Assembly: GCA_029571225.1 (NCBI GenBank)
Contig: JAKPTF010000035.1
Location: 12,575 to 76,574 of the forward strand
Direction: 5' to 3'
Length of the DNA: 64,000 nt
Source of the DNA: Candidatus Omnitrophota bacterium
GTDB taxonomy: Bacteria > Omnitrophota > Gorgyraeia > Gygaellales > Profunditerraquicolaceae
The position numbers and the translations under genes were made by a program. Shown here piece by piece: positions 1-41,000 of this stretch (position 1 is the stretch's first letter; every line of letters starts with the position of its first letter). A model generated the notes under the pieces. That model was not told where the DNA came from. It did no database searches and saw nothing but the letters and a program-made list of their open reading frames with translations.

Positions 1-180
1 CTGCTTCAGCGCGGTCAAAGCGCCCGCATTCTCGAAGATCGTATTGGCGCCGATGACCAGCGCACCCTGGGTTTTTTGTTCGGCGCGCACCGCATTCACG
101 ACATTGCCGAAATACGTCGAAACCGCCTGGTACACGGCCTGATCCATCTCAAACAACGGCGCGGGCATATTCGTTGCAAC
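1..180 (-). repeat. Shared C-terminal domain, copy 1 (partial, continues beyond window), preceded by KDGG at 181-189
   Basis: ...GRVLKDGGVATNMPAPLFEMDQ...QGALVIGANTIFENAGALTALKQ matches GALVIGANTIFENAGSIAALTQ (PGI-like) and GAVILGANAIMENAGSIAALEK (FBA-PFK-GAPDH). The DNA at 25-65 is also close to 7795-7830. Confidence 0.8.
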
Positions 181-7179: not shown

Positions 7180-7217
7180 TGTACTCCTCCCATGTTAGGA
7201 CGATTTTAAAATATCGG

Positions 7218-15313: not shown

Positions 15314-15329
15314 CGTTTCTTCTCCTTTT

Positions 15330-17076: not shown

Positions 17077-20000
17077 TTAAATATTTGTCGAGAAACAGCC
17101 GTCTATCCATACAACAAACTCGATCGCTGTTTTTTCAAGGACATTGTTGTTAAACGCTCCCGCAAGAAAGGCTTTGATGCCGCCGTCTTTGTTCTCAGGC
17201 GCATTGTCGTTCTTATTGTCTTTCCCACCCTTATCATATTTCACATAAAATCCTGAAGCAGTTCTCTGAGTCTTCTGCGCATCCGTGCACGCAGCCCGCA
17301 TAGTATCAATAGCCGCGTCTATATTGCCTGCTCCCTGAACCAACGACCGCACGTGATCGGTCTCATACCCGCACCGGCACCAAAGATGCGCAAGCTGTGA
17401 TTTTTGTTCGCAGGTCGCTTTAAGGCCCAGAAGATAACAAATATCCTCTTCGCTGAACACGTAGCTGCCGGTATACTCTGATCGCCGACAGCACAGCTCG
17501 ATCAAAAAACTTGTTGTTTCGGCATCGAGGACAATAAGGCTTGCTTTGCTCATGTTCCTGATCTGAGTCTTATTGAACAACGGTTTATTGCCTCTATAGA
17601 TAAGCGAAAGCAGGAATGCGTTTCGCTCCCGCCGAAGCCAGTACGCGATGCTCTTCAGAGGCCCGGCATTCATTCCTTTGCGAGATTCCATGAATTCGCC
17701 AAGCCTCACATACGGGCTTATATTATCGGGCACCAGGCCTGCTTCCACCAGCGCCGTAACAAGCTTGCCCATGCGCGTATTGCAAAGTTCAGCCAGCCGT
17801 CTGCTGTCCATCCGCAGGTCCTTAAGGAAAAGGAACTCGGGGTCCCCATACTCTCCTGCCGGATTGTTTATCCGGCAACACAAATTGAACCCCTGCTTTC
17901 TCCAGAAACCGGTCAAGCCTGCCAGATTATTCTGCGAAACGAGCACGGACGCAAAATCGCTCCCCATGGCCCTGCATACCGGTTCCATGAATTGTTTATA
18001 CAAAAATGTGCCAATGCCTTTCCCACGCAGGGCCGGGTCGAGCATAAGCTCGATCTGTGCGCGCCGCTGGGTATCTATTTTGGTAAAGTGCATCATTGCC
18101 AGCGGCATCTCCGTTGGTTGCGCGGTTCGGTCTCGCAGGAATACGGAATACGCAAAACCATCCCGTGATGTCACGACTGCCCGGAGCGAAGCGATCCCGG
18201 TCAGCTTTCGCAGCTGTCGTATCGGCAGTTCCGATTCGATGAAGGTCTTGACGGGAATTGCGCCTCCGTCCGAACGGCGCACCGCGTATCCAGCCCCGGA
18301 CCGCCGGATATTGACAGCAGGGTCACGCCGCGGATTGAACACGTAATAATATTCGCTCCTGTCCTCGCAGGGCAGGGACAATTCCCGGCTACGATAATCG
18401 TCGCTGTCAAGCGCCTCCTTTGCGTCTGCGGTAAAGCAGGCCCCTCCTGCAGTGAATACGTACGTACGGCTATCCATTCTGACTTTCTTCGACTCGCTCA
18501 AGGCGCTTTTTCTTACCAGATACTTGAGATAAATCCGCCTCTCCAGAAGCTGTTCGTACAGACACTGTTCCCCGTGCAGAGTCGCATCGGGATAACTTCT
18601 GCAAAAAGCCAATGCCTCCGCATAGATACGGCAGCTGGTGCTCAGGGTAAAACCTGCCTCAGGCGAATAATCGAACAGTATCTGTAATGCGCTGCACGGC
18701 CACCTGAAGAGGTATCGGTCAAGCGGGATCTCGTCGCAGGCCCTGCGCCCTGACGGACAGAACGCAAGGGCAATGTCTTTCCTGCCATGCGCATGTGTAG
18801 CTCCGAATTTGCGCTGCAACAATGTATTGATTTCAGGGAATCCGCGCTCTGACCGGGCAAAGCAGCACGCCCCGTCTGCGCATCTGATCCTGCCTGCCGT
18901 TTCCCGGGAAAAACGAAGTTCTATACCGTGATTTCCGCCGTCTCTGCCTCTTTTCCCCCCACCAGGATCGTCCGGAAGAACCTCAGATTCGGCCTTTGAA
19001 CGGGTATAATGCACCACGACGGCTGCACAGAATGCCGCTGTCAATATCGCGCTCAAAATGAAAACCGTATTGGACGGCAGCGCAATCAATCCCATGTCCT
19101 CAATGCCCGAAAGGAACAAATAAACCAGGAGGCCGGCGGTAATCAGTTTGCTTACCCATCTCAGGCATGTTGAGATCATCGGATTGTGCTGCAGCGTAAG
19201 CTGGCAAAGGGATTTTGATACGCATACGTCCAGCACAATGACCAGTAAGACCACATTGATTATGAAAGCCGCAAAGGTAATCCCCGTGCCGAACCGGCTG
19301 AGCAGCAGCGGCGTTATTCCGAGCAATCCGGGGCCCGCGATCAAAGGAAAAGAAACCGGGATTACGCAGAACCATTTATAGGGAACGGCCTCGAAATATC
19401 TGCACACATGGAGGCGGGGCATGAAGAAATCAAGACAGAATATTCCCAGGACGATGACGCAGGCGATCTTCAATATCCCCAATTGGAACAGGGACAGGGA
19501 AAGCCCGAGCGCCATGAAGGCAATCACAAAAACGATTGATATCGGCATCGACAGCAACAACAACCTCCTGATGCTGCCGCGCGTCAAATTAAGATGCTGG
19601 GCAATCGCACGGAAAACGATCGCGGTTCCGATGATATTGATCGCCATGCCGACTACAAATACCGCCATGGCCAACTGGTAAAGCAGGCCCATCATGCCTC
19701 CGTCCTGCTGCGCCTCAAGTCGCCGGAGCATATCGATCGACCGAGCCTGCGCATAAAGGCCTTTGCCTCTGAGTACCTCCCGGTAAAAAACCAGTATTTC
19801 AATCCACGTCCGGCCGGAAAAGTAAAGTTTCTGGTTGCCGAACCTGACCGGATGGCCGTTATCTATCAGGAAAAGCCCTGTTGATTCTTCAACGACCTTA
19901 ATGACTTCTTCCGGCGAGACCGATAGAGAGACCTCCTTGATGAGCCGGCGGTAGAATAACATCCGTTCCTGCTGGGATACGAGCCGCTTCGACCATGGAG

Positions 20001-23000
20001 CGCGCCTCTTGCGCGTCTCGATACGCGCGAGTATGTTATCGTACTGGCGGATCAGTATTCCGAACAGGACCTGATGAAGAAACGCATGGACGCTTTGATC
20101 CGTACAGGCGAGCTCGCTGTAGAGAGCGCCCGGGGAGGACAGTTTTCTTTCGAAACGCAAGCTTGCGCGCTCGAACCTGCGTTGAGCACGCTCGATCGCA
20201 CGGCTGCTGTTCGCCGGATATACGGACACGATATCAAAACCGACGTGGTTATTCTCGAATACGACGAGCGCGCCGATATCCGGGTTGATGGCCACAAAAC
20301 GGCCGTCATTGATGAAGTAATTCGTATCATGGCTCAAGACCACCTCATACGGCATTGCCTCATACATGCGTAGCAGCTCAAGGACCGGTTTATTGCGGTC
20401 GTACAGCGGGCTGCGGCTCGGCCATTCGTATAAATGGCGGGAAAAATGCCAGCACAGATTTTCAACGCCGGACCATGCGATCCTGCGAGCGCCTCCGTCG
20501 AGATGGTTATTGCCGTTCTTGATGAATTCAATATACGTGGGAAGCGCTTCGACCACATCGTTGTCCCCTTTGACGAGGATCGCGTACATGCCGAGGCTGC
20601 GGGCCGGATGGATATCACTGTCAAGATTATCCCCCACCATAATGGCCTGCGAGCTGTCGATATTAAAATCCCGCAACACAATCCTGAACGCTTCCGGGTG
20701 CGGCTTTTCTTTCTGAGACGGGAAATCGTCCTGCGTGATGATACGGGAAAAATATTTCTTGATCTTAAGGTATTCGAGCGTCTTATATGCCATCGCTTCG
20801 CAGTTGTTCGTCAGAAGCACCAGGGGATAATCCTCTGACAGCCTATGAAGCACACCCTGCAGCTCGGGATTCGGCTGAAGGTACCGGGAAAGATCAATAC
20901 TGGCAGTCAAGTATTCATGATAATCGTGGGCGCTCAATCCGAACATGCGGCATATCCTGCTATGGCTCTTTTCGCTGCCGACGCGCTGTTCGATCTCCGC
21001 GGCGGATAAAAACGGCCTTCGGCACCTGATGAACTCGAGCAGCGCCTGGTCATATTTTTGTGCGAGCTCATCGCTGTCGTAGAGCGTGTTATCGAGATCA
21101 AAGATGATAACCGCGACGCTTCCCGAAACCCGCTGCTGGACAGCCGGCAAAAACGTAGAAAAGAAATAGTACACCAGACCCGAGAGCTGCTTGGGCCCCG
21201 GATGCTGCTGCTGGTAGTAGATCTTGCGCAGCCGCGCAAGATATCGTTTTTCAATGGGGATCCCCGCGTTATCGACAACTACGATGAATTCAGCCAGCTC
21301 CAGAGGATGCGCCTTGAAATATTCATAACTGATGCGGCGGCCGCCCCGTTCCCCTTGATGGGCAAGATGCGCCAGCTCGTGACGGAGGATATCTTCCTGG
21401 ACGACCCGGGGCAGGGTCAGAAAATACGGATGGAAGCAGATGGTATTGGTCTCCCGGACGCTGTGGGCGACCTTGGACCAGCGCAAAGACTCTTGCGCCG
21501 AGATAAGGACGTTGAATTCCGGCGGGCCGCGGATGATGCCGCGTGCCGTATGGACCAGATTGGCGAATTCCTGGAAGCTCCAGAAATAATCATACACGAT
21601 GGCTCCCGGCTTGATGGCATATCTGCCTTTGGAGATTGAAAAGGATAGGCTCGTCGGTATCCTTTTTGCGTATTTCTTTTGGCCTTCCTTTCGGGCGTGC
21701 GCCGGTATGACAAGCGGGTAAAAATGACGCCGATGGCCGTTATTATACATTCTAAAAATCTTCCCGATCAGGATCAGAGAATTCACCGCAAGCCAGACTG
21801 AAATACCGATGCTGATGGCCAGGTCGAAGAACGGCATGCCGGTGACGAAGATGGCGATCCCCGCTGCTATTGCGGCGATAGATGCCGCAAGGTCCCCGAG
21901 AACATGGATGTATGCCCCTTCCATGTTGATATCGGTGCCCGAATGGCCGCAGAGGAACCGGTACCCGACCAGATTCACGATCATGCCGAAGAAAGCGATG
22001 ATGAGAACCTCAGCCCCCCCCACCGGTAGCGGCTTGAAAAACCGGACTAATGCGGATATGATGATATACCCCGATGTTATCCCGAGGATCAGCGCGTTAA
22101 TGCCCGCTGCTGCCAGCTGGAGGAAAGAGTTGCCTTCGTATTTCGGTGCAAGCCCGAACCGGTGCGTGGCCCAATGCGCGACCAATGCGCAGCTCAGCCC
22201 TGAAATATCCGTTATCATATGGCCGGCATCGGCGACAAGCGCCAGGGAATGGAACCAGAGGCCGCCGATGACCTCGATAAGCGCATATCCGGCGGTAATC
22301 GCCAGGACGATCATGAGCACACGTGTCCCGGCGTGATGATGTTCGTGGCCGCCATCCCTGAAACCATTACGATGGTTGACGTTGCCGTTGAACGTCTCGA
22401 CCATCTCCGGGTATTCGGCATAGGCAGCATAGCCCTCGCCGATCACCTTTCTTGTCGCCGCGAATATGACCGCGGAAAATACCAGGGTCTGCGTCATGCC
22501 AATAGCAAACATGAAACCGAATACCAGATAAGCGCCGATAGACATCACAAAACTGCGCAGGAAATCGCGGCGCGCCGTGCTGCGGCGGTAGCCCCGCAGG
22601 ATACGCTGGGCATAATTGAGCGGCCCGCCGACCATGCTCACAAGAATGATATCAAGAATTATATTGACCGCCATGTTCCCGCCAAGCATCAATGCAAGCG
22701 GGTCTGAAAGATACATTTTAGCCGCGACAATGGGTATGCATGACAGGCCGCTCGCGAACAAATCATTGGCGAGCTTCTTACGGCGCACATAACCGTACGC
22801 GCTTATAAGCTTTCGCACGCGCGTGGAAATATCAGCGATCCGGGGACATACAAGCTGATCGCCTACATATCCGCACGCTTTCATATCGACAAGGGCATTG
22901 CGCACGATCACAAGGCTGATCCAGACGCAGGAAAGCACAATACTGATCTGCCCGATGCCCTGTCCGAGCGACATGCCGATAACGGTTGCAAGTATCCCCG

Positions 23001-26000
23001 CAATAACCTTGGCATAGGTCAACGACCTGAACCTATTGTCCTCGAACGGCAGCTTGTTCTCCATGATCGCGTCGCTGATGTCCTGGAACCGCCGGCTGCC
23101 CCCGTCTGCGATGCTGTTGTCAAGCACCAGGTCATACTCGTCATCCGGCACAAAAACCAGGCACCGCGATACGGCGCCCCATCCTCTGCACCGGGAATAG
23201 TGGCGGCGGTCCTCTTCCCGGGCAACAATCTTGACCTTGATATCGAACATGCCCCGGTCAAGGCTGCTGAGCGAGTGGATACCCTCGACGACAACCACCC
23301 TGGCCGGACATTTTGTCGCGCATTCAACGATGTCTGCGGTCAAGGAAGCCCAGTTATGGTGCCCGCAGGTATAATCAAACGATTCTATATACGCATCAGC
23401 TGCAAACACCTTCACCCAAAACCTGTTTGCAAACACAAGACCCGTAAAATACGTTTTGCCTACTCCGCTCGACCCGTCGATGAGAACAAACGCCCTGCCT
23501 TTCTTGCGGCACACGCCATCGATCATAGCAGGAAGCAGCGCCTGCCCTTCCTTGAGCGTGGCGCGGAGCGCTCCTCCGTCATTCCGGGGATACCGGGGGG
23601 AAGAGGCGGGATCTTCCGCCACGGTAGATTCATCCGCCTCTTTTGGCCCCCCAATATGATCCCTGGAATCATAACTCACGAAATGTATTGCTTTGCGTAT
23701 TGCTGCGGCGTAGAGCTTCCAGACATTGCCCGAATGGTTCTTATGATACAGGTATGATAACAGCACGATCCACGGCACTGATGCGCATTGCGTGATCATA
23801 TAAGAATACTGCGGGAACACCAGAAATGCGAAGAATACGACCGGAAGCCAGTACGGCAGGTTGGTCATGAATATGAGCCTGGGATATTTCAAATACCGGT
23901 GCACGCCCTGTGCCGTACCGTCATAATACACGTCGCGCAGGCTCTGGCGCAGCGGATGCCTTTCGACCCAGAACCTGCCCAGGAAGTATCCTGCGCCCAG
24001 GCCGAACCAGGTGCCCGGACCTTGATCAAGAAATGCTTTTATGACAGGGATCGGAAGGCCGGATGCCGGGATGCCGAGCGCTCCGGCGGTATATGCCGTC
24101 GCCAGCGGCAGGACTATCCCATACCACCCTATGCCGAACCAGGCAGCGCTGAACGTAAAACCCAGTATCCCTGCCCTGATGACCCTGCCCGTATCGAGAT
24201 GGCAGTGTTCTTCATCTATGCGGATCTCATAACACTGCGCGAAATAATTTGAGATCGCCGCGCTGATGCACCCGACGATCGCACAGCGTACATAATCAGC
24301 CAGAATATAGCTGCTCACATAGGCATCCACGGAAAGGCCTGTCGGAATCGGAAAGATCAGCATGATCGCTGCTGCAAACACGGTGAAAATGACTGACGTA
24401 AGCGCCAGCTGTATGATAAACTGCCTGACCTGGCCGTTTTCAGCGCCGCCGTCTTTGTTCAGATCACCAAACAGATGCCGCGCGACGCCGAACCATTCGC
24501 GCTCATAGGTGAGGCGCGAACGTTCGATGCCCCGGGCAAGCGCCATCGCCTTCTTTTGTTTCACGCCGAGAAATACCAGTTCTTTCCATGCGCCCTCTCG
24601 CACGCTCGCAACGAACAAATCAGCGCCCTTTTCGTCAATAACCCCTTTGCCGATCTTTTCGAACACGCCGGAACCCAATATCTGATGCTGAATAAAATCT
24701 TCGTTCAGGTACGCATACATATACGCGGCCATGGCCGCGCCGGCTTCCCTGCCGATCTTGCGTATCAATTTACGGGCAGCACCATTGCCCCGCACAGCTT
24801 CTTCAGTCAGCGAACGCAGTGTGAATCCCTGTTTCTTGAGTTTCCTGGTCAGGTTTGGCCCGGAAAACAGGTCTTCAAAATCGCCCCGCAGGTCATTCCC
24901 CGACTCGTCCTTCGGGTGATCCCCGCGCGTTTTGGAACCCAGGAAAATGAACCTGCCGCGGTATCCCTCCGGAATATCGGTAAGCGGCACCACGCTGCGC
25001 AAGACCACATTATGGCCGAGTTCCCGTATTTCGCCATGCTCGCCGGCATATACTTTATTGTCACGAGCTGCAGCGGCATTACTGCCCGTTCCGGATATCC
25101 AGACTGTCCCATGTCCCCAGGGGAACAGGGCACCTTTCGGCGTTAGTTCTCCGTCAACAGCCGCATTGCAGTCATTATCGATATACACGGGCATACTGCG
25201 GCCGAATGCCTTTTCCATCCGCTGCCCGAGCGCCTCCCGGAGCGGATAGTGGTCAAACGGCATGTTCTTTGCGGCAAAAGGCGTTCCGACAACCCCCTTT
25301 TCCTGGTCCAGAGGGCCGGCAAAAGCTATCCCCAAACCAGCGATCCTATCAACGGCAATCCGGTTGTCGCGGACCACCCGTTCGATTTCGCTTACCATGG
25401 CATCAACGCACTCCTCAGGGCTCGCCTGCATAAGGCCCTGTCTGAAATAATCGTTCCACAACAATTCGTCCCCGCGGGCAGCGACCTCATACTGTTTGGT
25501 GATCGCGCCGACAGCAAGCTTGCTTCCGCCCACGCTCGCCGCCATCACGAGCGGCCCGGATTCATCGTGCCGGGCTTTTTCGACAATATATCGTACGGGC
25601 TCAAGGGATTCGTTATACTGGATGACGTTACGGGCAATACCAGCGGGATTGCTGAAGCTTATATAGACGTCGAAATCCTGCGCCGTAGGGATACGATTAA
25701 AATCATCGAACGTCCGTTCCAGATAATTCCAGACCCTCCTTTTTGACAGGGACTGTTTGGTTTCCAGAATATAGCTGTCGATCATTTCATCGTCCGTCAG
25801 GAGCAGCCTGAAATCTGTGATCGCAAGCCTGACCGTATAGCCGTCGCCGTTCGAAACAACCCGTGACCTGTTGCCGGGGCGCCCCTCCAGGCGCCTGACG
25901 ACGCGGTCAACTACTGCAGCCACCGCATCGTCGTTTTCCGCGAAATAGACGATGTTCTTGACACGCTCGAGTCGGCGGTCGTCTTCAAGAGAAAATATGC

Positions 26001-29000
26001 GGTCGTCGGCATGGGCGTCAAGGATCATGCTGAAAACCGAAATATGCTTGCCGAAACCGGCAATCTGTTCATACAGGTCCTTGAAATGCGCGTTGAACTT
26101 GAATTCCATGATGCCGTTGACCGTCGTAGCATCGACTTCCTTTGAACCCTTGGCGGAGATGAACACCCTCTCAAAATCATCGATGTCCCCCAGGTTCGCG
26201 AGGAACGCGATGATGTCCTCGAACTCGAAGCTGAACTTATGAATGCCCGAGGTCTCGCCGAGCATGCCTTTCACCCGGCCATAGCATTTTGTATCATGCC
26301 TGCAGCCGACGTCATGGGTCCCCAGACGGCTGAACCTGGCGAGCGTCGAGCGCACAACATTAACGAGCATGCCCTTGTGGGGGAAACGCGAATACATGAC
26401 ATTACGGTTGCCTTCCTGCATCAGGTCGTCGAGTTTGCTGACAAAAACCCCCATGTCCGCCTTGCGCACGAAACGGTTCCAGTCCGGTATGATCTCGATG
26501 CCGCGGAACAGCTCCTGCATCTGGCAGGACAGGCGCGCATCGGCAGCGCCGGCTTTATTGGCGTAAATCAGGCCGAGCAGAAGGCCGGCGATCCTGCCGT
26601 CTTCGATCCTGATCCGCTTATCGGTAAAGGCCGCGCGCATTTTCCTGAACTGATCATCGAGAGCGGACGCAGCGGGACAGAACGAACGTATGTCTTGGCC
26701 ATAGAGCAGCTTGAATATGCGTTCCATGGCGTCCGTGTTTCCCGTGGCAGGAACCGTAAGATCATTAAGCGCCTTATCAGCTGACGCAAGGGCCTCAGAG
26801 GCCGGATACGAGTATCTGACAATATTGGCAAGTATGGCCTGCCGCTCGTGTCCGGGCAGGCGCAGGAAAAAGTTCAGGTCGCCGTTAATTACCTCCTCGT
26901 TGCAGGAATCTTTTATCAAACATCGGTCGCAATGCAGTTTATGGCGGAGGATGAAGGTAAAGGTTGGTATATCGTGCAGGGCTGATGCGGGCAGATCGAT
27001 GACTCCGGTGACGGCGCAGGTCGTGAATATGCCTTTGTCGCTCGGGGAGGAAACAAGCTGGTAATCAGGAGGGCTCCTGATCGAATACACGTATCCCCAT
27101 ACCTTGTATTTCTTGAGCGTGTCAAGGGCGGCATTGAGGATACGCACGATATCGTCCTTGGTAAAACCCTCGCACTGGCAATTCTCAATGATCACCTGTT
27201 TGCCGATGATCCTGCCGTAGATGCCCGGCGCTGTCGCTGACGGCGCAATCGGGGCTTCGCCGCCGTCTTTGCGGCTGTTCATCCTGTCAAGCACCGACAG
27301 GAGCCTCTTTTGCTCCCGGCTTCTGGCGATCTGCAGGTCTTTTTCATGCAACCCTGCCCAGAAGTCATGATGCAGATGCCCCGCATTCTCGATAATGATC
27401 TGATCGATGCGCCCGCCGATTCCGCCGCGGGCCATTACCTCCAGGACGAATTCGAGGCGGAAGGACTTGCGCAGCGGCAGATTGATATTGTCGATCAGGT
27501 ACGGCACGCAGCCGCGCTCGCCGAATGTTTGGATAAATTCTTTGTAGGGCCACCGGCTGTCTTTGGCCATAACCGCCACGCTTGCGAGCACCCGCTGCGC
27601 AAGCAGGCCGGTAAGGATATCGCGGTAACTCCATCCGAACATCTCCGGATTTGCGGCTTTATGGATCGATTCGATGTATTCGATAAACCTGCTGCCGAAA
27701 CCGTCGGTGTCTTTTGCAAGCTCCTCGATGACCCGGGAATTGAATTGCAGGTTGAACACGCCCATCAGGAACTCAAGATAGAGGTCGAATAACGGCATCT
27801 TTTTTTCCGATGTCAGGAATATGATGCAGCCTGCCAGCCGGTCAACGATGATATGGCGGGCGGCATATTTCTGCCGGGCGTCTGATGGCAGGAGGCGGCG
27901 GTCAAGCACCCACACCTGCATTTCTTCCCTTTGAATCTGACCGCTGTTCAAATGCCTCTTCCACCATTTCGGCTTGACCGATTTTCTGTCAGTGAAAACC
28001 GAGGCGAACGCGAGCATCATGCGGAATGGTTCGCGTTTTTTCTCCAGAATACGGTTATAGATACCGGGGTATCTCTCGAACAGCGCAGCGACCTCTTTCG
28101 GTTTGTGCTGTTCGATGAGATCGCGCATGGCCGGCTCGGAGATGGCAAAGACTGTGCGCGGGATGCCTGATTTTTCCATCTGGCCGAGAAAGATGTCGCG
28201 CGCCTTGGAAACGCCGGAGGCAGTCGTCGTATCGAGGTCTGCCTTCAGGAAATTCCTTCTGATCTCGGCGAGCATCTGATTCAGTTCTTCCGGGTTATAG
28301 AGGTCCTTGCGGTACCGGTTCAGATGCATGGCGCGGATATTGCCCATCGCGTATCCCAGGTCGATCTCGAGGTCGCTCGTGATCCTTGTCGCGCTCACCA
28401 CCGAACCCGTACTCCTGAATTTCTTGCGGTTAAATGGTATAAGAAAGTGGATGTTTTCCGCGACCTTGCGGCGCAGGACCAGCTTCGGAAACAGGTAATC
28501 GATAAAACCGCTGACCACCTGGCTGAAAAGTTTCCTGCTGATCTGGTATGCGCCGGTTTGGCCGAGGATATTGCTGCCGCCGAGCAGGGTACAGCCGATC
28601 GTCGCAATGGTAAAACCGACGTCCTTATACGCTTCCGTGTATTGGGCATCGACGCCGAATCCTTCTTTTTTGCGCGTGTACATGGAATACAGGACTCCGG
28701 CGACGATATTGACAGGCAGCTGGATCAGGACGATGGCGAGTATCTCACCGTATCCGAGGATATTAACGGCAGTCCAGAGCGACGCGATGTTGAGGACGGA
28801 AAAGATGATGAGGCCGTAAAGCCCGTACTGGAGGAATTGCGCGAATTTCTGCCAGTCGATATCGGCCCAGTCCCATTTCTTGACCTTTCCGCCGTACCAG
28901 TGTATCTCATCCGTTATCACCGAGCGCAGGAATACGCTGACATGCCACAATATCCAGGAAATAACGGCCCACTCGTATCCGATAGGGATGCCGATGGTGA

Positions 29001-32000
29001 TGAGGAACACCGCAAGGACACCGACAAGCGACAGGGCGATCCAGCCGATATATTCCCAGCGGATCTTCTTCCTTTCATAAATATTCTTGATGACCGGGTC
29101 CGCAGCGACTTCCTTGCCTTCTCCGCCGTCCTGAACGGCCCCGGCTCCCCATCGGGAATAAATCCTGCGGTACGCATTCTGCGTGGCTTGGTCCCTGCTG
29201 AGCCTGAACTGGTCAACGGTGGCATCGAGGATATATCCGGAATCCTTGCCCGGAGGCGTTATAATGACGAAACTATGGCCGTCGAGTGCATGATACCTGT
29301 TCTCTTTAGCATATACCTGATCGACCCGGTACCCGAGCAGGGAGAATGCCTCGGCAAGCAGATACGACGCTAATCCGCAGCAACGCGGATATGCGGGAAG
29401 CGTTTTGATATACAGGTGCAAAATCCTGACCACGGCATCCGCCTGCGCTTCTACCGTGTCCATTTCATTCACCCGCAGCACCCGCATGCCCTTGAGCATC
29501 TTACTGCGCAGGACGCGCGCCTGCAGATACGGCCGCCTGCTTCCGGGGATAATGGAAATAAATCCGATGTGGTTGGCCAGATAATCAGGCGCAGGCTGCG
29601 AGGAAGCAAGATAGAAGTTATAGACAAGCGACCGCTTATCGAGTTTGTCCATTGGGAACAGAACATAATCGCGTCCCTTCTGCCCGGAAATTGAGCGTAA
29701 ACGCGTATATTCGCGCATGCGCCGTACCCTGACTTTTCTTCCTCCGTCCTGCGTGACGCTTCTTGCATTGCGTCTTTTTTCAATGGCCATAATGGCTTCC
29801 CGAACCGCACGGCGCACCTCAAGGTTCCTGTCGTCGCGGAATCTGGCCAATACTTCGATGTCGTTTTCATCCCCTATTTTACCCAATGCCGCAGCGGCAT
29901 TGGAACGGCTGCGGAAATACACGGACGGTTCGAGATATCGCGCCAGCATATGTTTTGCCCGACAATCACCGGTTTTTGCGCTGATTGTTCCGATTGCTTC
30001 AATGAAATCGGGGGTAACGTTTTCATTGTCGCTTTTGCGCTCCAGGGCAAGCATCAAAAACGGTATGGCGCCGGGATTCGCCATTTGCCCCAGATGACCT
30101 GCTCCTGTCCTGTTCCAGCAGTTATGATAATTGAATATCATGTTGATCTGCTGCCAGATGGGGGCCTTGCCCTCTTTTGTCTCGATCCTGCCTCTGACCT
30201 TTCCGGCTGCCTTAAACGCCTCAAAAACAGACGCATCGATATAAAATAAGCGGATAACGCTCTCTGAACGCGCATGCCGGAATGTTTTCTCGCACGCCGC
30301 GAGCCCATCCTGTTCCATATCGTGCTTTATGCGCCTGAATATCTCAACCGGAACTTCATAAACCGTTCCGCGTACCCGGCTACCCGGTTCCCTGACCGCG
30401 ATCGCCGAACTATATACTTTGCCGTTGTATTCGAATGCATATTTATAGATGCCAATACACCCGATATCGAGCTCGGCGTTCGTTTCGCGGAACATCCTCA
30501 ATATATCAAGGTCAAACCCAAGTTTCCACGGCCCATAGACAAACAGGGAAACATTCTCTTCTCCGCCGTCGCGCCTCGTATGATTATTCGTTGTGCGCAC
30601 GCGCTCCAGCAGGGCTGCCAGCTCGCCGCGCCGGTAGCGTTCTAAAAGTATCGCGCGCTCGCGAGCCACAGATGTATTGCTTATTCTCCTGCCAAGTTTC
30701 ACAGACACTTCCCATGCGGTAATTCTTTGCTCTCCGGCAAGAAGGTTATCGATAGCGGCACGGTCATCCAATGTTATGCCATTTCGTTCCATGGTATCAG
30801 ACAGAACTTCAACGACCCCGTCCCGGATCGTCCTGGGATAGCGGCCCATGTTATTGTCAAACTCTTGAATGTCCGGATATATGGCCTTCATGATCTTCCG
30901 GTCCACGCTTTCTATCTGGAATCCCTCTTTATTGACAAACCTGATCGTGATTGCTCCGAGGAATGCAAGAACGCGCAGATCCAGATTCGGGTTTAATGCA
31001 CCCGTAATGCCTTTTGATAAAAGAGCCACAGCCATGGCCCATTTCGTCAACGGACCTGACCCGTAATCATGCGTATAGATGAGGTACAGCCTGCGGCGCT
31101 GCAGGGGGATCGGGTTCAGAAGTATTCGTTCGACGCGCTGAACCGTATTGCGGCTCACGTTCTGGCTTTTTTCCAATGACTTAATCCGGGCAATGCGCGT
31201 ATCTTTGGAGAACAGCGTTTTCATGGTACGCATGAACATTATCACATGCCTAACAGACGTGACCTCCGAAAGGCCGGCCTTTCCTTTGAGATGCTCGAGC
31301 AAAGAATCCAGTTTGACTGCATCGGGATCTTTTCCTCCGTCACGGAAAGGCTCACAAAACATCCTGGTCCGCTGAATGGCGCGTTCCTGTTCTTCCGCGA
31401 TCCGGTAAAACTCTTTATCGGTAAAATAAACGCTGCCACCGTATTCCACTTCCAGAGCATCCACAATAAGCTGGAACAAAAACATCTCAAACTGAACCTT
31501 GTCCAGCGGAAAGCTGATGCCGGAATCGATATAATGGGACAAAGGCGATTCGACCCTCTCGCCGTAATAATACTGCGGCAAAGCTGCCAGGATGTCCTGC
31601 TCCCTGCTCAAGATCCCCCGCTGATGCATGATCCTGATAATGAACAATTGCAAAACCATTGCGAGATCGTGGAACTCGGCGTCCGGGCTATTATCGGGCA
31701 TCGTGATTGTGATCTGCGAAAGTCTGCCCTGTGGATCATAGCCGACATCTAAGGTGCCGTAATCGTCCGTCCTGTTTTCACCAAGGGGATATATTACGGT
31801 CTCGATATTCACCTCCAGGTTTGTTGCCAGGCAGCGGATGAACGCCCTGAAACCGGGGAGCATCATCTTTTTTGCCTGCCGCGAGCACGCGGACGCGTGC
31901 ATCATGCGCATTGCGCTTTGTACCCTGAAGAAATATTCCTTCAGCCTTCGCGCCAGGGAAATATGGCTGTAATAGAACCGTGTTTGCGCATACACCGCTG

Positions 32001-35000
32001 CATCATCCTTGCCGGTAAGCACTGCAGCACAAGGGTCCACGGTATAAGACCTGAAGAAACCGATCGCGATCTTCTTCACATCCTTCCTGTCCATCCCCTC
32101 ATCGATCTCTTGCTTATAGATACGGTACAGGCCGCGCACCTCAGCCGCGCAGGCGCGCTCCGCAGGTGCGCCGAGACCGCCGTCTTTGGCAGCCGGGGAT
32201 CGCAATAATTGCCGGACGCGTTCGTGCAGCGCTTCTATGGAGCCGTTGTTGTCGATGATACGTGTCCTCGGATCACCACGGAGAGCGTCAAGCGCCGGTT
32301 TCTGACGCGCTTCGATATCGCCTATCTGCTCCCTGCTCAAACCGCGCGCAGCGAGACGGCTGTGCCTCACAGATTGGTCGGCGTCAATAAGCCAGATCTC
32401 ATCGCACAGGTCATCCAGCTCCTTCATCTCATTGAGCACTGCGGCTTCGATGACAATCATGGCCTTTCCCGACCGTTTTGCTTGAGCTATCCCGGCAAGC
32501 GCCCGCTCTTTCATGGGCTCGAACATGATCGCGTTCAGGGCGCGGCGCTGCGATTCATCGCCGAATACGATCGCGCCGAGTTTCTTCCGGTCAACCGCTC
32601 CGTCAGGCGCCAGGACGCCTGCGCCGAATCTTTGTACGATCTTTTGAATCATACCCGGATCAGCCCTGACTTCATGGCCTATGGCGTCCATGTGAATGAT
32701 CCTGACGCTCTCCATGACCTCTCTCTCGATCAGTGTGCATACCGTTGTCTTGGCGCTTCCGATATACCCGGCTACGCCGATTATTCTGGGCGTGCGGAAT
32801 GCCCTGTCTGCGGCACCCGGAAGCAGCGATTTGGCCATGACAACAGTTCCGTCATATTCAAGCGGCCCGCGGAATCCGAGAGACCTCAGGAAGCCGACAA
32901 CGTCCCTGCACGGTTTCCCGGTCTTCTTATTGGGCCTGACATGCACGATCAATTCCGTTATGGCCGGATCCCTGCTGAACTCGTTTTCAAGCAATGCGCA
33001 GAATATGCGTCCGCGCCTCAGTTTAAGGTCCTGCGGATACGTGCGCCAGAAGCTGACCACTGCCGCGTTCCCCCGCGTCCGGACCCTGGCAAGCCCGACC
33101 CAAGAAGACCGCTCACCGCCTGTTGCCAGATAGACAGTGTCCGGTTTCCGCTCGCTGAACTCAAGCCGATATTCCGGAATTCCTGTCTTGCCGCCGTCCT
33201 GCTGCGCAGCCGCCTGCAGTGGCGGCACCGGCGCATTGAGATCAACGGCATGATTGAGAATATGCCATTGGCTGTCATTGACGTTATGCGCCCTGGCATA
33301 CTCCTGTAATGCATCTGCCCGCTCGGCAACGGCATATTCTTTCCACTGCTGCGTCCCCTGCATCACGTAGAGATCAGCGACAAGGCCCGAAAGCCGGTCA
33401 TGCACCGGTTTGTGGGTCAGGTCAGGCCGCAGGACCGTGCGCAGGTATGCATGGGTCCAGATGCCTGCAGGGCCTTTGTTTATAAGATCGGCTTCGGCGC
33501 ACAATTCAGCGAGCTTCTGCTCTTTCTCATCAATACTGCCGGCCTTTTTTTCGCTCAACCATTTCCAGTACCTGCTTTCCACAGCTCCAAGCAAGTACAA
33601 CCAATCAACTGCCTGCAGGTTGCATTTGAACTCTTCGAAGCTACGGACATTGCGCGCAGCTTCAGGAACCCCGTCCCTGAAAGCATCACCGGCGTATATA
33701 CCGAGGCTGGCCAGGCGCAGGTTCATCTCTGCCATAAGCCCCAGCGCCTTGCGCAGATCTTCGAGCGAAAGATTGCCCACCATGCCTATGAACTCGTCTC
33801 TGACGATGGTTTCGAAGAACGGCCGCAGCCGTATGAATGAGTGGACTATCGGGCCTGCAAGAAAGCCTGCATTGGGAGCGCGTTTCTCCCTTCTTTCAAC
33901 CAGATAATCCTGCGGGAAAGCCGTGCGCATATCATAAAGCAACGCTATTTTCTCCCTGGCATCCGTATCCGAAACTCCTGCAGAGCGCATTTTCTCGCGC
34001 AGAAACGCATCGGAACGGAGATCTAACCGGAATTCCGCCCTGTGATATTTATTCCACACCGGCACGTCAAGAAGCTTTGCCGCAAGTTCTGCCCTATCGT
34101 CGCGCAGCAGACGGGTAAATGCATATACACGGTGCTTCTTCGCAAGGCGCGATACTGCGCGCGCTGCGCGCTTCAGGTAAAAATCAGGCATTTCTTTGCG
34201 TTCCGGATCCATAAGCATCTTGACGGCGTGGTAATCAAACGGGAACATAACCGCATTGCGGAGAAAGGGCGCCAGCAGGCCTGCAGATCCGAACAACGAG
34301 ACGAGTGCCACGAATAAAGCGTACGGTAATCCGGCAATTGAGGCTCCGGCAAAAGCATATAGGCCTGTAACGACTGTGAACAATGCGCAGGCGCCACAAT
34401 AAAACGAAGAGAACCATTCAGACGATCTTTCTTTTTTATTCAAATAGACAATACGGCGAAACAATGGCGCTGGTGAAAAATCGAACGGTTCCATGGGTTG
34501 ATTCTCGTATTGCGGCACATGGTGCGGCCAGGTGGCAAACGTGGCATGCATCTTGTCAGGGAAATCCTTATACTCTTTGCCGCCTGTATATGTCAGCCAG
34601 GGAATCAATATAACAAAGATGAACACGCCTGCCGCAAACGCAAGGACCGGGATAAGCAGCCCGCCGTCCCTGACCTGCTGGCCGCCTGCTGTCTCCGGAT
34701 CGACTGCATGGTTGAGCAGGATCCAATCATTCTCGGTCAGCTCGTTCTCACGTGCCAGATCCCTGAGATACTGTGTTCGCTCATCTGCAGAGCGGTTCTG
34801 CCAATCGGACGTTGTTTCCTCTATATAAAGCTTGGATACGGCTTTTTTGATGTTCTCTGGCGCAGGGGCAAGCACAGTCCGGAAATAGACGAATGTCCAG
34901 CATCCGGCAGGCGCATCTTTATGCAAACCATGTTTATCGAACATCCGGAGCAAAAGCTCATCCTGTTCGATAATGCTGTAAAGAGCGAGCTCCCATTTGA

Positions 35001-38000
35001 TATGCTGGAAATCCTCGATGATATGGTTCTGGATGATCGAAACTGCAAGAGCATCAAGATACTGTTGGAACGCAGGCAGGCTGGTAACGCTTCGGCATGC
35101 TGCCGGGATCCATGTGGACACGGTCTTATCATCGACCATGTTCATCGAGGTCAGACGGGCCTGGAATTCCTGGGCATACTGCAGCGCCTGACGGAAGTCG
35201 TCGAGGGTGAGATTTCTCGCAAGATCGTACAGGGAAGCGGACCTGCCGTCCTGGAACCAGATCTTCTGGAGGTCAGGCAGGCCTTTCCAGTATATCGTTT
35301 CCTGGAATGCCTGCGCGTAGGCGCGGCCATGGGCCCTTTCGCGGGCGTTTTCCAGGATGCCTTGCTGGACCTCAAGCCGCAATGCAACGCGCCTGGAGGC
35401 ATATTCCCTGAGATCATCCGGTATTGCCGGATGGGCCAGTATTTGCCTCGCCTTATCAGCTTCGAACCGTTCGATCCAGTTATTAAGTATCGACACGAGC
35501 GATCCCCGCTCGATTCGTGCGAAAATCGGCGCTGCATTATCAACATCTCTATCGGTCAGATAATCTACGGAAACACGATCGAAGCGCCGGACAATCGCCT
35601 GATCATTGGCAAGGCGAAGGATATGCAAACAACATGTGCCTGCACGGCGGCCGAATACATCCAGCATCATCAAACACCATACTGCCAAAGCCTTTGAACG
35701 GGGTAATTTACTGATCAAATAGACGGCAAATGAATACCCGACGCATCCCAGAACAATCGACATATATATATTTCGCGTATTCCACCATACGAACATGGGA
35801 TATATGGCCGGAATGACCCATGCGATAATAAATGTAAGGATGATCGGCACGGCATTGCTCTGCATCCTCGGATTCGCTGCTGCGGGATACGCCGGCTGAT
35901 CCGGCCACAGGCGCAGGTTCTTGATGAAACCGAACGGCCGGAGCAGGGACTGTCCGCCAATACCTCCATCGAAATTCTCGAGAATATATCCGTGCTTTTC
36001 CATATGATCCGTGCTGACAAACGCGAACGTCGGGCTAACGCCGGCCTCGCGGTTGGGTACTTTTATTATGCGGTAAAGGCCTAAGAGCCAAATGGAGTGC
36101 ATACCGAGGTACAGAGTCTCATCAGTTGCATTAAAAAAGACATGTTGTATCAGGCGGGAATGAAATATATCGGATTCACCACAGGCATAGTCCCGCAAGC
36201 CGAACTGGAGGCCTAAACGGGATGACGTGCTGATGCGCGTCGTATTTGAACGGCCGTCTTCGATGATCAGCGTATCCCACGTTTCGTGAAAATCGCCGGT
36301 GCGATCGCCATGGCACAAAAGCGATGACAGGTATATGGAAAAAGACAATTCTTTCCGGTCATATACCAGTGTAAACCGCCTGTTATCCGGCTGCCATATG
36401 ACGGTATCCCGTGTTTTTTCCCTTCGCAGGGCGTCTACTTTATCCAGATGTTTCGCAAGAAGATCAAACCTGGCCTGCGCCAGGCGCATGTGATGATACC
36501 GTTCATCATCGATCTCATCGAGCTTATCGAACGGGATGAAGCTGCTTCCGATCGGCAGGCTTGCGAGCAATTCCTGTTCATTCCTGAATGACTCGATTTT
36601 TTTACCGGCTATCGCGGAGACCGCCAAAGAACTGGTTTGTGCGCGCACAACTATCAACGCTTCAGACGGTTTCCCGAAGGCTGAATTTGAAAGTTTGCGG
36701 AATATGATATCACCGGCTTGTATCTTTTCCAATCCGGATATTTGGGGGGCAAAAGACTGTAACTCTGACATGTGGTTGGAAAGCTTGTGTTCTTCAGACA
36801 AAGTGTCCTTGTTAAATTCGCTCAGATACAGACGCATCCAGTCGCGGAGGCTGCGGCAAGGACTTGTCTTTTCCTGGCGCAGAAGATCAAACGCCGGCGG
36901 ACCGCGTAAGTCTTCGACAACATTGCGGTCAAACCACGATAAATCAACCGATGCCGCCTGGCTGATCGACTGCGCAACACCATGAAGGTCATCGTCGCTA
37001 ACGGATCTCATGGATCCGAAGCGGATCGTATTGTTTATCTCCGGGCAAATCCCTGGTACGCGGCTTGCCAGGGCATGCGCGGAGGACTGAAAAAGCAGCG
37101 CTTCATCCCTGGTAAGACTTCGGTACGCTTCAACCCGTGCAAGGAACGCGGATACTTCGGCATTGATACCGGGCTGTTCGCCTTTGCTGCGAATATAGAG
37201 CAAGTGCGCAGGCCTCATAAGCGCCATGAACATGAATATTTTCCTCTGCGGGATAGTCAATTCTTCCATGGCCTGCTTCAGCGCATTATTCATAACCAGA
37301 CAATACGTTGTACTGCCCTGTGCCTCATCCATGATGTTCACATCCCAGGGGCTCTCAGTGCGATCCGCCCAGAAAAACCCCGTTGAGCCTTTTGTAAGAG
37401 CGCAATAATAACACGGGTATACGATCTTCATCATGGCCAGGCCATGCTCATAAACCCTGGTATCCATGGGAAGCGCGACAAAATCCGCAGAGTGCTTTTC
37501 GATGAACGAAGACTCAAGCGCAAGCTCCCCGGCAATAAAACTGATGTTTCCTTTCCTGTCCGCGCCTCCGTCTTTGGGCTTCTGCGCATAAAGATTGACC
37601 TCATACAATTCAGACCGTTCCCAGTACGGGAACGCTGCTTTGGCAAGCAGCGCCCGTTCGTATTCGTTCAATTTCATATCAGAAGCAATCCCGTCAATTA
37701 TTGCCTGTTTATCCTTGGCCGGCAGCGCGTTCCAGTCATGCCTGCCCTGCTCCACAAAAAGCCTGCTGGCTGCGGCAGACGCCTGATTTTTGATTAATCG
37801 AATTTTACCGCCGTGGGGAAGGGTTTCAGAAACAAAAGATTCATCTTCCAGTACCGTGTTTATATATAGTCTCGTCCAGCCGCCCGAAGCCACCTGCTCC
37901 TGAAACGCCAGCTCCCTGCAGATATCGATCAGCTTTTGGTCTCTGCTGAACCACCGATTGTACCTGGTATAAGCTCTGTAACGGGATGTGATCTCAGTAA

Positions 38001-41000
38001 TGATCGCCATGGCCTTGATAGCATCCAGATTTCGCTTGAATTCGGCAAGGTCAACTGCCAGACAGGCGGCGGGGATACCGTCATTAAATAATGGTTTGAT
38101 ATCGACTTTACCGTTCAGATACACATAAAACCCCTTGATATGTTTCAGTGCCTGTTCGAAATCCCGTGCAGGAATAGTTTTCAACAGGCGCAGGAAGTCC
38201 GTGTTTGAGAACAAATCCCTGAAGAGCCGGTCAGCATCTGCGTTTCTTTCATTCTCCAGCAATCTGAAAACGGAACGCTGATCTAACGGATACGCCTTGA
38301 TCTGGTTCAGCATATCGTAAATCAACTTCGCCTTTTCCCTGCCGTCCGGCTCCGATGCCGCAGCCGTGACGATCTTATAGTAAAATTCGGTTTCTTTCTT
38401 TGCCCGCGGCAATAATATCCAATCGCGCCTTTCTTTCAATTCACGCGTCATTTTCCACCACGGATGGTCGACGATTTTGATTGTTTTCATTTCCTGGCCA
38501 TTGATAAGCCACTGGGTCAATACGCGCATCAATACATCATTATCCAGCCGCCCGTACAACGCTACTGCCCGGGCATACTCCTTATCTGCAATAGACGCGG
38601 GATCCTGTTCATCGAAATCCCTCATTTCCTTCAGGTCATTCCCGAATGAGCTCACTCTCTGTATAAACAATTGGACCCGCTGCGCCCGTGCAATAAGCAG
38701 GCACAATCCGGTGGTGAGACCCAGAACGATTAATAGTGCCGTTTGATTATCTACTAAAATAAAACAGGCAACGATGGTGACAACCAGGAAAACGCCGAAA
38801 GCGAGTATATTAAAGAATTCCTCTTTCATGAGAGAAAGATCGCCTTCTTTTACCTGTGCCATCTGCAGGCGGATACCCGGCTCTAACAGAATCTCGCTGA
38901 TTCCGGTGCCGGATCCCTGCTGCCTGCCGCCGTCTTTTAAAGGCGGGAGCGCATCTTCGGAAATGCCAGGATCCAGGGATTTATTCAGATGGTACCATTC
39001 CTTAAGAGAAGATAACTGATTGTCCTGAAACAGGGTTCTCATGAATCCGGCTTTCTGCTCGGGCGTATACGCCTTCCACTCAGGTTTTGATTGCTCGTTG
39101 AAGATCCTGAATACTGCTCTTTTGAGATTATCCGGGCCATGTGCCAGGATAGTTTTCAGGTATACGTGCGTCCAGGAACCAGTCTGGCATCTCGTCCAGA
39201 GTTCCAGATCATCGGCGAGTTCCTTCAAATACGCGACCTGCGCGAGCGTATCATTGGCGCGGTATTGTGCCTGCTGCCATTTGATAAACCTGGCAACGAT
39301 GCCTTCGATGATCACCATGCTCTCGACGCCCTTAAGGTTCTCCCTGAAAGACTCGATGCTTGCCACACCACGGCATGCGGCCAGCAACCCTTCATTGACC
39401 AGCTCACCTGTGCCGAGGCCTGAACGCGCCAGGAATGCATACAGGCCGCTAATCAGTTTCAGGCATTCCCGGAAATCCTCGACAGACAGGTTACGCACCA
39501 GATCCTTGAATTCCTCGCGCGTGCGCATTTCGACAAAATCCTTTTCGATTTGCTGCGCGCGAACATCCCCCAGGGATGCGCTGTTCATATCCCTCAGCAT
39601 ACTGCATAATGACTTAACTTTTGCCTTGGCGTCACCGAAAGACGGCACCGCATCCTGCATTGCGTCAAGGAGAAGTGCCTCATTCTGTATCAGAGATTCA
39701 TATACCTTGCGTCCTCTGCTCATCGGCCGATGCGCCATAATAAGCGCTATCTTGTCGGACTCTCCCCTGAACAGCAGGTCCTTTAAAAGCAGAACGGTCA
39801 TGTAATGCGTGGTCCAATAGATGGCCCTGCTGGCGTTTTTGATCTGCCGTTCTGAAAGGGCCTTTGTTTGAACTGCATAAAATGTATTCAGGGCTTCAAA
39901 TGTCCAGGAAATACGCCACATTTTCCCGAAAAGACCGTACATATAACGGGTAAATTTAAATATACAGGCAAAGAACATCCAGATAAACGGCCAGATTGCT
40001 GCTAAAACTACCGCCGCAAAAATGCCCGTGTTCTGCGATATGATTACGCCGCCTACGAGATGCGGGCCGAAGATACCAAAGGCCACAAGCCCAGAAATCA
40101 AAAGAATACCACTGATAGAGTGCCATGGCAAGAAGCCTTTCGTAATGATCTCAAGAGCACGTTTAGCCTCCTGCCAGAAAATGTTGGTCAAGTACTCTAT
40201 CAGCCGCTGCCTGGCAAGTTCCAACGACAGCCTTCGATATTCCTCGTACGTATAGGGGAATCCTTCTGCCTTATGCCGCGTGCTTCTGCCGCCGTCCTTC
40301 TGGCCATTGCCGTTGACGTCACGGCGGCCTGCGGCGTAGAACCCGCGCTCCTGCAGGATCTCGTCGCGGATGATCGAAGCAATGGCAAGCGGCACGTTCT
40401 CGATGTCGCCCTCAACAACCCAGTGCGAATACACCTGCTGGACATAGGTAATACCTTCACCGATGCCTAAACCGATGACCTTGATGCCTTCAGCTTCGGC
40501 TTTCTCAATTTCCTCCTGCATGACCGCGGTATTATTGAAGTGGCCGTTGCCCTCTCCGTCTGTGATGATGATAATAACACGGCTATCTACTGTTTCTTCG
40601 CGCATCTTTTCTACTGCCAGCCGCAGCGCATCGACGTCGCATGTAGCGCCGCCACCCATGAAGTTTATGATCTCGCTGATCAGCTCTTCTTTTTTGGCCA
40701 GGTCAAGCTTCTCGTCAAATTCTTTGTGCACCCATGCCCCTGAATGAAACCCGATGACGTTGAATTCAATGTTCAGGTACTGGAGCGTCTCCATGAGCAG
40801 GACCAAACCATGGATCTCGTCTTCCACGCGGCCCATCGCGGGAATACTGCCGCTTTCGTCCAGCAGCAGCGAGAACCTGTGGCTGCGCGATTCCGGCCGC
40901 GTCTTGCGCAGCCAAACCTTATCGTCGCTAATGCCCTTGACCTCATATGCGATATCCGCCTGCATTAGCCTGCGAAGGTCTATCTTCTTGCCGGTGCGGT

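Follow-up and report, generated by a model that had tools for sequence, protein, structure and literature searches.

Candidate transglutaminase-like modules in a giant Omnitrophota reading frame punctuated by Asp-Gly-Gly

The window analyzed here, a 64,000-nucleotide stretch of contig JAKPTF010000035.1 from a Candidatus Omnitrophota bacterium, is largely taken up by a single minus-strand open reading frame (ORF), which is open from position 17077 to beyond position 64000 and encodes at least 15,640 amino acids, with its N-terminus off the window. The ORF is accepted as coding because Pfam domains span its entire length: DUF1152, triosephosphate isomerase (TIM), two Peptidase_M50, tetratricopeptide repeats (TPRs), VWA, dephospho-CoA kinase (CoaE), HEAT, ROK kinase, cation-efflux (CDF) transporter, HAD, and GNAT, along with six midasin/dynein-type AAA_5 domains that all fall within one block of 2,330 residues. 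The tripeptide Asp-Gly-Gly (DGG) recurs along the ORF, and three of its domains, here called m1, m2, and m3, carry a Cys-His-Asp motif that an earlier note on this DNA took as a sign of candidate papain-like proteases for DGG. These motifs most likely represent transglutaminase-like domains of the papain fold that fall into two orphan families, m1/m2 and m3; that all three are divergent transglutaminase-like modules carried as cargo of the DGG-punctuated ORF, and not C39 peptidases, is a reading to which we give about an even chance.

DGG as a boundary between modules

DGG is a genuine, conserved boundary between independently folding modules at the protein level, a conclusion strongly supported by its frequency, placement, and conservation. 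The window ORF contains 37 DGG tripeptides against 4.2 expected from shuffles (maximum 13), and two relatives are likewise enriched: L001 has 13 (2.4 expected) and P0001 at least 18 (1.2 expected). All 37 sites lie outside the Pfam domains, and the segments that they delimit measure 65-938 residues, besides the 2,330-residue AAA block. Homologous modules in L001 and P0001 begin just after a DGG even where the preceding module differs: sites 330, 751, and 2269 of the window ORF correspond to 2892, 3332, and 4488 of L001, and sites 751, 10605, 11417, and 11623 to 294, 1371, 1689, and 1874 of P0001. The premise behind the earlier note's proposal, that DGG sites are functional junctions, is thus strongly supported. 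A single segment holds both a CDF transporter and a HAD hydrolase, so enzyme domains are not always parted by DGG.

L001, an Omnitrophota metagenome-assembled genome (MAG), is the sole relative detected among GTDB species representatives; its readable length is 6,938 residues, and all negative results for L001 hold for that part. P0001 is a giant protein of 5,225 residues encoded in the Omnitrophota MAG L002 (GCA_026387435.1, JAPLLS010000096.1), which shares the downstream synteny of the window. The P0001 ORF is complete, with an in-frame stop upstream. At positions 1-260 of L002, the stretch of the frame between this stop and the annotated start of P0001 includes ENGLCGKADGGEAIAKENE, so translation may in fact begin further upstream and give P0001 a short leader that ends in DGG.

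Could the repeated element be a nucleotide-level signal, such as an internal Shine-Dalgarno sequence (GGAGG) or an RNA site, that happens to be translated as DGG? This possibility was rejected: GGAGG is present at only 9 of the 37 sites, the third positions of the Gly codons vary, and the bias toward GAC is no different from that of Asp-Gly dipeptides in general (Fisher p 0.78).

The residue just before the Asp of DGG shows a weak preference for Lys/Arg in the window ORF and for Ala in P0001, and no conserved upstream motif was found in either protein beyond it. Most DGG sites in the giant ORF are flanked by soluble, hydrophilic sequence; several others, together with the leaders of downstream ORFs, adjoin hydrophobic, membrane-like segments. 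DGG extends beyond the giant ORF: each of the three large minus-strand genes downstream begins with a hydrophobic N-terminal leader, after which K/R-DGG comes at residues ~46-74, and a further DGG lies near the C-terminus in two of these genes. The leader DGG is conserved in the L002 orthologue of one of them, an aldolase fusion, whose DGG tripeptides are at residues 64 and 1596.

The window ORF belongs with the “Archaeovorin-type” giant genes of Omnitrophota and has a polyprotein-like layout of ~38 protein-sized modules, each ending in Asp-Gly-Gly. Like the published Archaeovorins (West-Roberts et al., 2023), it mixes glycolytic and other enzyme domains in one frame and raises the same question of cleavage; the window, L001, and L002 all come from the same phylum. 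Unlike here, the published description has no DGG junctions or transglutaminase-like modules, and neither is mentioned in a 2026 survey of long Omnitrophota proteins. Whether Omnitrophota giant proteins work as single chains or as cut pieces is the question that this window addresses, and what it adds is a sharply defined, conserved junction motif.

Three Cys-His-Asp modules

All three motifs proposed in the earlier note are present inside the giant ORF on the minus strand. Translation of 29197-29409 on this strand gives IKTLPAYPRCCGLASYLLAEAFSLLGYRVDQVYAKENRYHALDGHSFVIITPPGKDSGYILDATVDQFRLS (m3, residues 11530-11600), and the plus-strand frame of the same region holds a stop; translations of 60352-60519 and 57772-57954 contain FFTCANKTAFMYLLLSMLGYETRIAVGSGPVFAVVPWAGEHIFVDL (m1, residues 1160-1215) and ARCIVTAQLTYIILAMLGFNVRGCSRIGHCFVGLMLDKKRLLVIDF (m2, residues 2015-2075), respectively. 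The regular expression “Cys, 10-18 residues, LG[YF], His, hydrophobic, Asp” matches the ORF in 3 places only, with a shuffle mean of 0.024, an enrichment to be read as indicative at most because the expression was written after the fact and fitted to the data. Independent support for the motifs comes from the homology of m1 with m2 and from the m3 homologue described below. Are these motifs three copies of one module, as the note described them? m1 and m2 are paralogous copies of a single domain (BLASTP E 6e-10 over 152 residues; phmmer agrees), but no relatedness of m3 to m1/m2 was detected by phmmer or hhalign (alignment A1 against A2), and “three copies” therefore overstates the case.

The paralogues m1 and m2 may be versions of a single protein, a transglutaminase-like domain followed by TPRs, of which m1 would have lost the canonical His. 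Their alignment pairs C1166 with C2026 and D1207 with D2068, matches the MLG[YF] end of the helix, and sets the m2 His (GHCFV) against a Pro in m1 (GPVFAV). m2 keeps a full candidate triad of canonical spacing, 26 residues from Cys to His and 16 from His to Asp. In m1, the His picked out in the earlier note (His1203) lies four residues ahead of Asp1207, with a non-canonical Cys-to-His distance of 37; m1 would thus be either inactive or reliant on a migrated His, for which Atg4B and UfSP1 are precedents (PMC10318531). In architecture, m1 and m2 resemble E. coli YchA/SirB1 (“transglutaminase-like/TPR repeat-containing protein”) and the PA2778 family of C39-like peptidases (NF033920), in which TPRs come after a papain-fold-like domain. 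The N-terminal domain of m1/m2 gave no hidden Markov model (HMM) match to the SirB1/YchA-type Transglut_core2, although the TPRs after both were confirmed; YchA itself lacks the Cys and the His; and the similarity to NF033920 (C39_PA2778_fam) is limited to the TPR tail, profile positions 157-254.

How widespread is this domain? A word-indexed search with m2 and a scan of viral contigs with the m1/m2 alignment found no homologues outside the window ORF, and no m1/m2-like domain was found in L001 or P0001, both of which retain the TIM module and DGG. In these relatives, the TIM segment is either shorter or has a P-loop domain in place of the m1-type part. With DGG kept and m1/m2 not found in either relative, the two domains are additions specific to this lineage and ill suited to be a general protease for DGG.

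m3 is an independent module of 206 residues, bounded by DGG on both sides, with a complete candidate triad. An exhaustive HMMER search of 1.84 billion protein representatives returned one homologue, residues 1692-1873 of P0001 (E 1.4e-6, 31% identity, full length), which is likewise bounded by DGG on both sides; the only other match, P0002, was a false, repeat-driven one. The Cys and His are identical in m3 and P0001 and the Asp is replaced by Glu; as for m1 and m2, the comparison covers two sequences. In papain-like triads, the third residue can be Asn, Gln, Asp, or Glu (PMC10318531). No further relatives emerged from word-indexed searches with m3 or the m3+P0001 alignment, from metagenome scans with the m3 alignment or a degenerate DNA pattern for YPRxCGLxxYLxxExF, or from viral-contig scans with the m3 and m1/m2 alignments, and m3 was not found in L001. 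P0001 does carry a genuine member of the Transglut_core family close by: residues 955-1371 combine a true Pfam Transglut_core (E 1.3e-8) and a CoaE in one DGG-bounded segment. In the homologous CoaE segment of the window ORF (residues 10270-10607), an unrelated N-terminal part of 135 residues replaces the Transglut_core.

Cargo or processing enzyme?

The C39 double-glycine peptidases offer a parallel: they are Gly-Gly-specific Cys-His-Asp enzymes of the papain fold and have been put forward as the proteases by which Omnitrophota giants process themselves. Their catalytic His follows the Cys by ~73-79 residues (C32/H105 in CvaB, C17/H96 in ComA), a Gln precedes the Cys by a few residues (Q11 in ComA), and they occur in the context of ABC transporters. 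The segments of m1, m2, and m3 have no match to PF03412 or PF13529 in Pfam at E up to 10, their Cys-to-His distances are 26-37, none has a Gln in the 10 residues before the Cys, and an ABC-transporter context is lacking; a C39 identity was therefore rejected for all three. For m3, which the earlier note likened to the C39 layout, the distance is 34, and no C39 structure is among the fold matches listed for its model. Of the “transglutaminase / C39-type papain-fold pattern” claimed in the note, the C39 half thus falls, and the transglutaminase-like layout survives, weakly, for m2 and m3.

Rejecting C39 for the modules does not dispose of C39 as the DGG protease. A C39-type peptidase or some other protease outside the window could cut at DGG, from the N-terminus of the giant ORF, which lies beyond the window, or from elsewhere in the genome, and the three modules would then be functionally unrelated to processing; this alternative is possible, if on the unlikely side. 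In Omnitrophota giant genes of full length, West-Roberts et al. (bioRxiv 10.1101/2023.11.21.568195) report C39 domains close to the N-terminal end and propose that the giant proteins cleave themselves via N-terminal C39 or S8 domains, at points stated as not known. In the 2026 survey, no architecture cluster of long Omnitrophota proteins is larger than a PF03412 (Peptidase C39) group, and C39 peptidases are known to take off double-glycine leaders (PMC10318531). On the other hand, no C39 domain is present in the 15,640 residues of the window ORF, in the 6,938 residues of L001, or among the Pfam families recorded for P0001, and nothing before DGG beyond the weak Lys/Arg or Ala preference would serve as a recognition motif. 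Even so, a C39 domain outside the window is at least as good a candidate for the DGG protease as m3.

What, then, are m1, m2, and m3? They may be highly divergent transglutaminase-like domains (papain fold, Cys-His-Asp/Glu) and ordinary modules of the giant ORF. Cys-to-His and His-to-Asp distances of 34 and 17 in m3 and of 26 and 16 in m2 suit the cores of PNGase, LapG, NAT, and transglutaminase-type enzymes, and Transglut_core (PF01841) has comparable spacings, 26-34 and 16-17. In the AlphaFold2 (AF2) model of m3 built from the single sequence, a helix (residues 121-134) begins at Cys120/121, His155 heads a strand (156-161), and Asp172 lies within another (169-173), a layout that, in this low-confidence model, resembles that of the transglutaminase-like superfamily (such as the Streptococcus suis transglutaminase, 4XZ7), in which the Cys sits at a helix N-terminus and the His and Asp on successive strands. 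The 4XZ7 structure was the best or second-best fold match to this model by two methods, searching ~48,000 and ~350,000 chains, with scores below threshold. Together, the structural match and the residue spacing weakly suggest a papain-like/transglutaminase-like fold. Unlike known Transglut_core proteins, m1-m3 match no HMM of the family, their structural scores fall short of significance, and they are modules of a DGG-punctuated giant ORF.

Several results weigh against the transglutaminase-like reading. The first AF2 model of m3 is of low confidence (pLDDT 48.3, pTM 0.51), and the second, built with the P0001 alignment, is worse (pLDDT 46.4) and loses the beta-sheet; models and fold searches cover m3 only. 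The m1, m2, and m3 cores have no sequence match in Pfam, NCBIfam, or PDB at E up to 10. Comparisons by hhalign were not significant for m3 against m1/m2, for either against the true Transglut_core of P0001, or for the m1/m2 alignment against YchA, each with two-sequence profiles, and conservation of the m3 triad, known from a single homologue, rests on two sequences. Searching PDB by sequence with m3, the A1 or A2 alignment, or the P0001 Transglut_core turned up nothing relevant, and the viral fold library BFVD held no match to the model. The motifs could accordingly be a coincidence: m1/m2 would be an unrelated helical or beta domain that precedes TPRs, and m3 an orphan of some other fold. 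The lack of any profile or sequence match to a clan CA family, the low-confidence models, and the sub-threshold fold scores all fit this alternative, which we nevertheless find rather unlikely: two methods, independently of each other, rank one transglutaminase structure first or close to first, the Cys and His are invariant in an m3 homologue at 31% identity, and the residue spacing and secondary-structure context suit the fold.

If the modules are transglutaminase-like, m2 and m3 might have activity as thiol enzymes (speculatively, a protease, an amidase, or a transglutaminase). Could one of them be the DGG protease? The earlier note proposed just that, and in its strongest form m3, possibly with m2, would be a cis-encoded endopeptidase that cleaves after Asp-Gly-Gly, releasing itself first at the DGG that lies 51 residues past its His and then acting in trans on the other sites. 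The junctions are real and conserved, and m3 is itself DGG-bounded, with its core near the C-terminal DGG both in the window and in P0001, a protein that combines an m3 homologue, a Transglut_core, and at least 18 DGG and whose recorded Pfam families include neither C39 nor M50. In function, the nearest precedent for transglutaminase-like cutting at Gly-Gly is LapG (BTLCP; MEROPS C93, PF06035), a transglutaminase-fold protease that acts on a pair of small residues, the di-alanine in PAAG or AAAG, in giant adhesins (PMC6890996). Unlike m1-m3, LapG is a separate, periplasmic, calcium-dependent enzyme with one cut site; PF06035 does not match m1-m3, and there is no LapD-type context in the window.

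The arrangement also evokes viral papain-like proteases (potyvirus HC-Pro, arterivirus and hypovirus leader proteases, coronavirus PLpro), which are encoded in cis, cut polyproteins at Gly-Gly, and often do so at the C-terminal end of the protease itself, a few dozen residues past the His. The modules differ from these proteases in showing no sequence or structural match to them, in having a bacterial host, and in traveling with housekeeping enzymes. The evidence for the fold is weak and the activity purely putative; m1 has a Pro at the canonical His position; DGG persists in L001 and P0001, where m1/m2 were not found, and in L001, where m3 was not found; the lone m3 homologue has Glu for Asp, albeit a substitution that papain-like triads tolerate (PMC10318531); and a trans-acting protease could be encoded elsewhere. 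A DGG-protease role is therefore quite unlikely, if a reasonable hypothesis, for m3; m2 is a weak candidate, and m1 an unlikely one. The weakest proposal is that the M50 (site-2 protease family) modules process DGG, a highly improbable one: the window has two such modules and L001 one, window copy 1 and its L001 counterpart are homologous modules preceded by a DGG that is conserved in position and downstream sequence, and several DGG sites and downstream leaders adjoin membrane-like segments, but M50 enzymes cleave in or beside membrane helices, the surroundings of most DGG sites are hydrophilic, and no M50 is recorded for P0001.

The transglutaminase-like modules are thus more likely cargo than processing enzymes, in which case they would add two orphan, highly divergent members to a very large superfamily. 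We think it very unlikely that m3-type modules represent a previously unrecognized transglutaminase-fold, Gly-Gly-specific polyprotein protease that cuts dozens of co-translated housekeeping proteins. If they did, glycolytic enzymes, kinases, transporters, and an AAA machine would be made as one translation product, and a virus-like polyprotein strategy would serve the core proteome of a cell; the papain-like polyprotein processing of viruses would then have its first counterpart in cells, and the transglutaminase-like clan would gain a new specificity. The candidate proteases within the ORF are now m3, m2, and the two M50 modules, beside the C39 domain proposed previously, and the most valuable result is their context, a conserved DGG-punctuated bacterial polyprotein.

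Other modules and neighboring genes

Table 1. Features of the window and their coordinates (residues are those of the giant ORF).
Feature	Position	Strand	Residues	Remarks
Giant polyprotein-like ORF	17077..64000	-		38 segments set off by 37 DGG tripeptides; Pfam domains throughout
TIM, apparently circularly permuted	60952-61740	-	753-1015
m1 domain	60163..60606	-	1131-1278	Cys1166 (60499-60501), Pro1192, His1203 (60388-60390), Asp1207 (60376-60378)
TPR repeats after m1	59797..60162	-	1279-1400	Pfam; DGG-bounded segment 754-1431 shared with permuted TIM
m2 domain	57571..58026	-	1991-2142	Cys2026 (57919-57921), His2052 (57841-57843), Asp2068 (57793-57795)
TPR repeats after m2	57247..57570	-	2143-2250	Pfam TPR_2, TPR_8, TPR_1; same DGG-bounded segment as m2, 1905-2271
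Peptidase M50 module 1	56152..57183	-	2272-2615	Pfam; candidate in-window protease
Peptidase M50 module 2 (site-2 protease family)	53146..54258	-	3247-3617
DGG-free hexa-AAA module	44626-51615	-	4128-6457	Six AAA_5 + midasin-lid domains, 2,330 residues
VWA (MIDAS-type) module	40288-42666	-	7111-7903	After hexa-AAA module
Seven paralogous modules	54259-55788, 51616-52950, 43285-44625, 38926-40287, 37564-38925, 34660-35961, 33190-34659	-		DGG-bounded, 434-510 residues
m3 module	29122..29739	-	11420-11625	206 residues; DGG upstream 29740-29748; own C-terminal DGG 29122-29130
m3 core motif	29197..29409	-	11530-11600
m3 candidate nucleophile Cys	29377..29379	-	11540	Second Cys of RCCG; Cys kept in P0001 (YPRLCGL)
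m3 candidate His	29275..29277	-	11574	GHSFV; 34 residues past Cys; His kept in P0001 (FHTFP)
m3 candidate Asp	29224..29226	-	11591	YILDAT; 17 residues past His; Glu in P0001 (YILELT)
Segment with CDF transporter and HAD hydrolase	20491-22347	-	13884-14502	DGG-bounded
FBP aldolase + PFK + GAPDH (GAPDH_C) fusion	10163-15343	-		Downstream gene, 1,726 residues
PGI-like domain gene	7218-10073	-		Downstream gene, 951 residues
Downstream ORF	1-7179	-		At least 2,393 residues; off the low end of the window; absent from program-made ORF list

The remaining modules of the giant ORF are varied (Table 1). Seven of them are paralogous to one another and have no Pfam match; each joins a hydrophobic N-terminal part to a conserved C-terminal domain of ~330 residues (VPAA.R, WT..Y) that ends in W..LN.A.DP, after which 10-15 residues lead to DGG. 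They were considered as proteases and ruled out, since no Cys, His, or Ser is conserved among them. These modules flank the midasin-like AAA module and the VWA module. The hexa-AAA module, uninterrupted by DGG, looks like a single-chain unit resembling midasin or dynein.

Rfam and tRNA scans across the window gave no match. The TIM module departs from the usual order of its family: profile positions 54-242 come directly after DGG (residues 753-951), and positions 1-51 come later (residues 965-1015), in a stretch that includes FNLKM, which resembles the catalytic GNWKMN. The same permuted order is found in both L001 and P0001.

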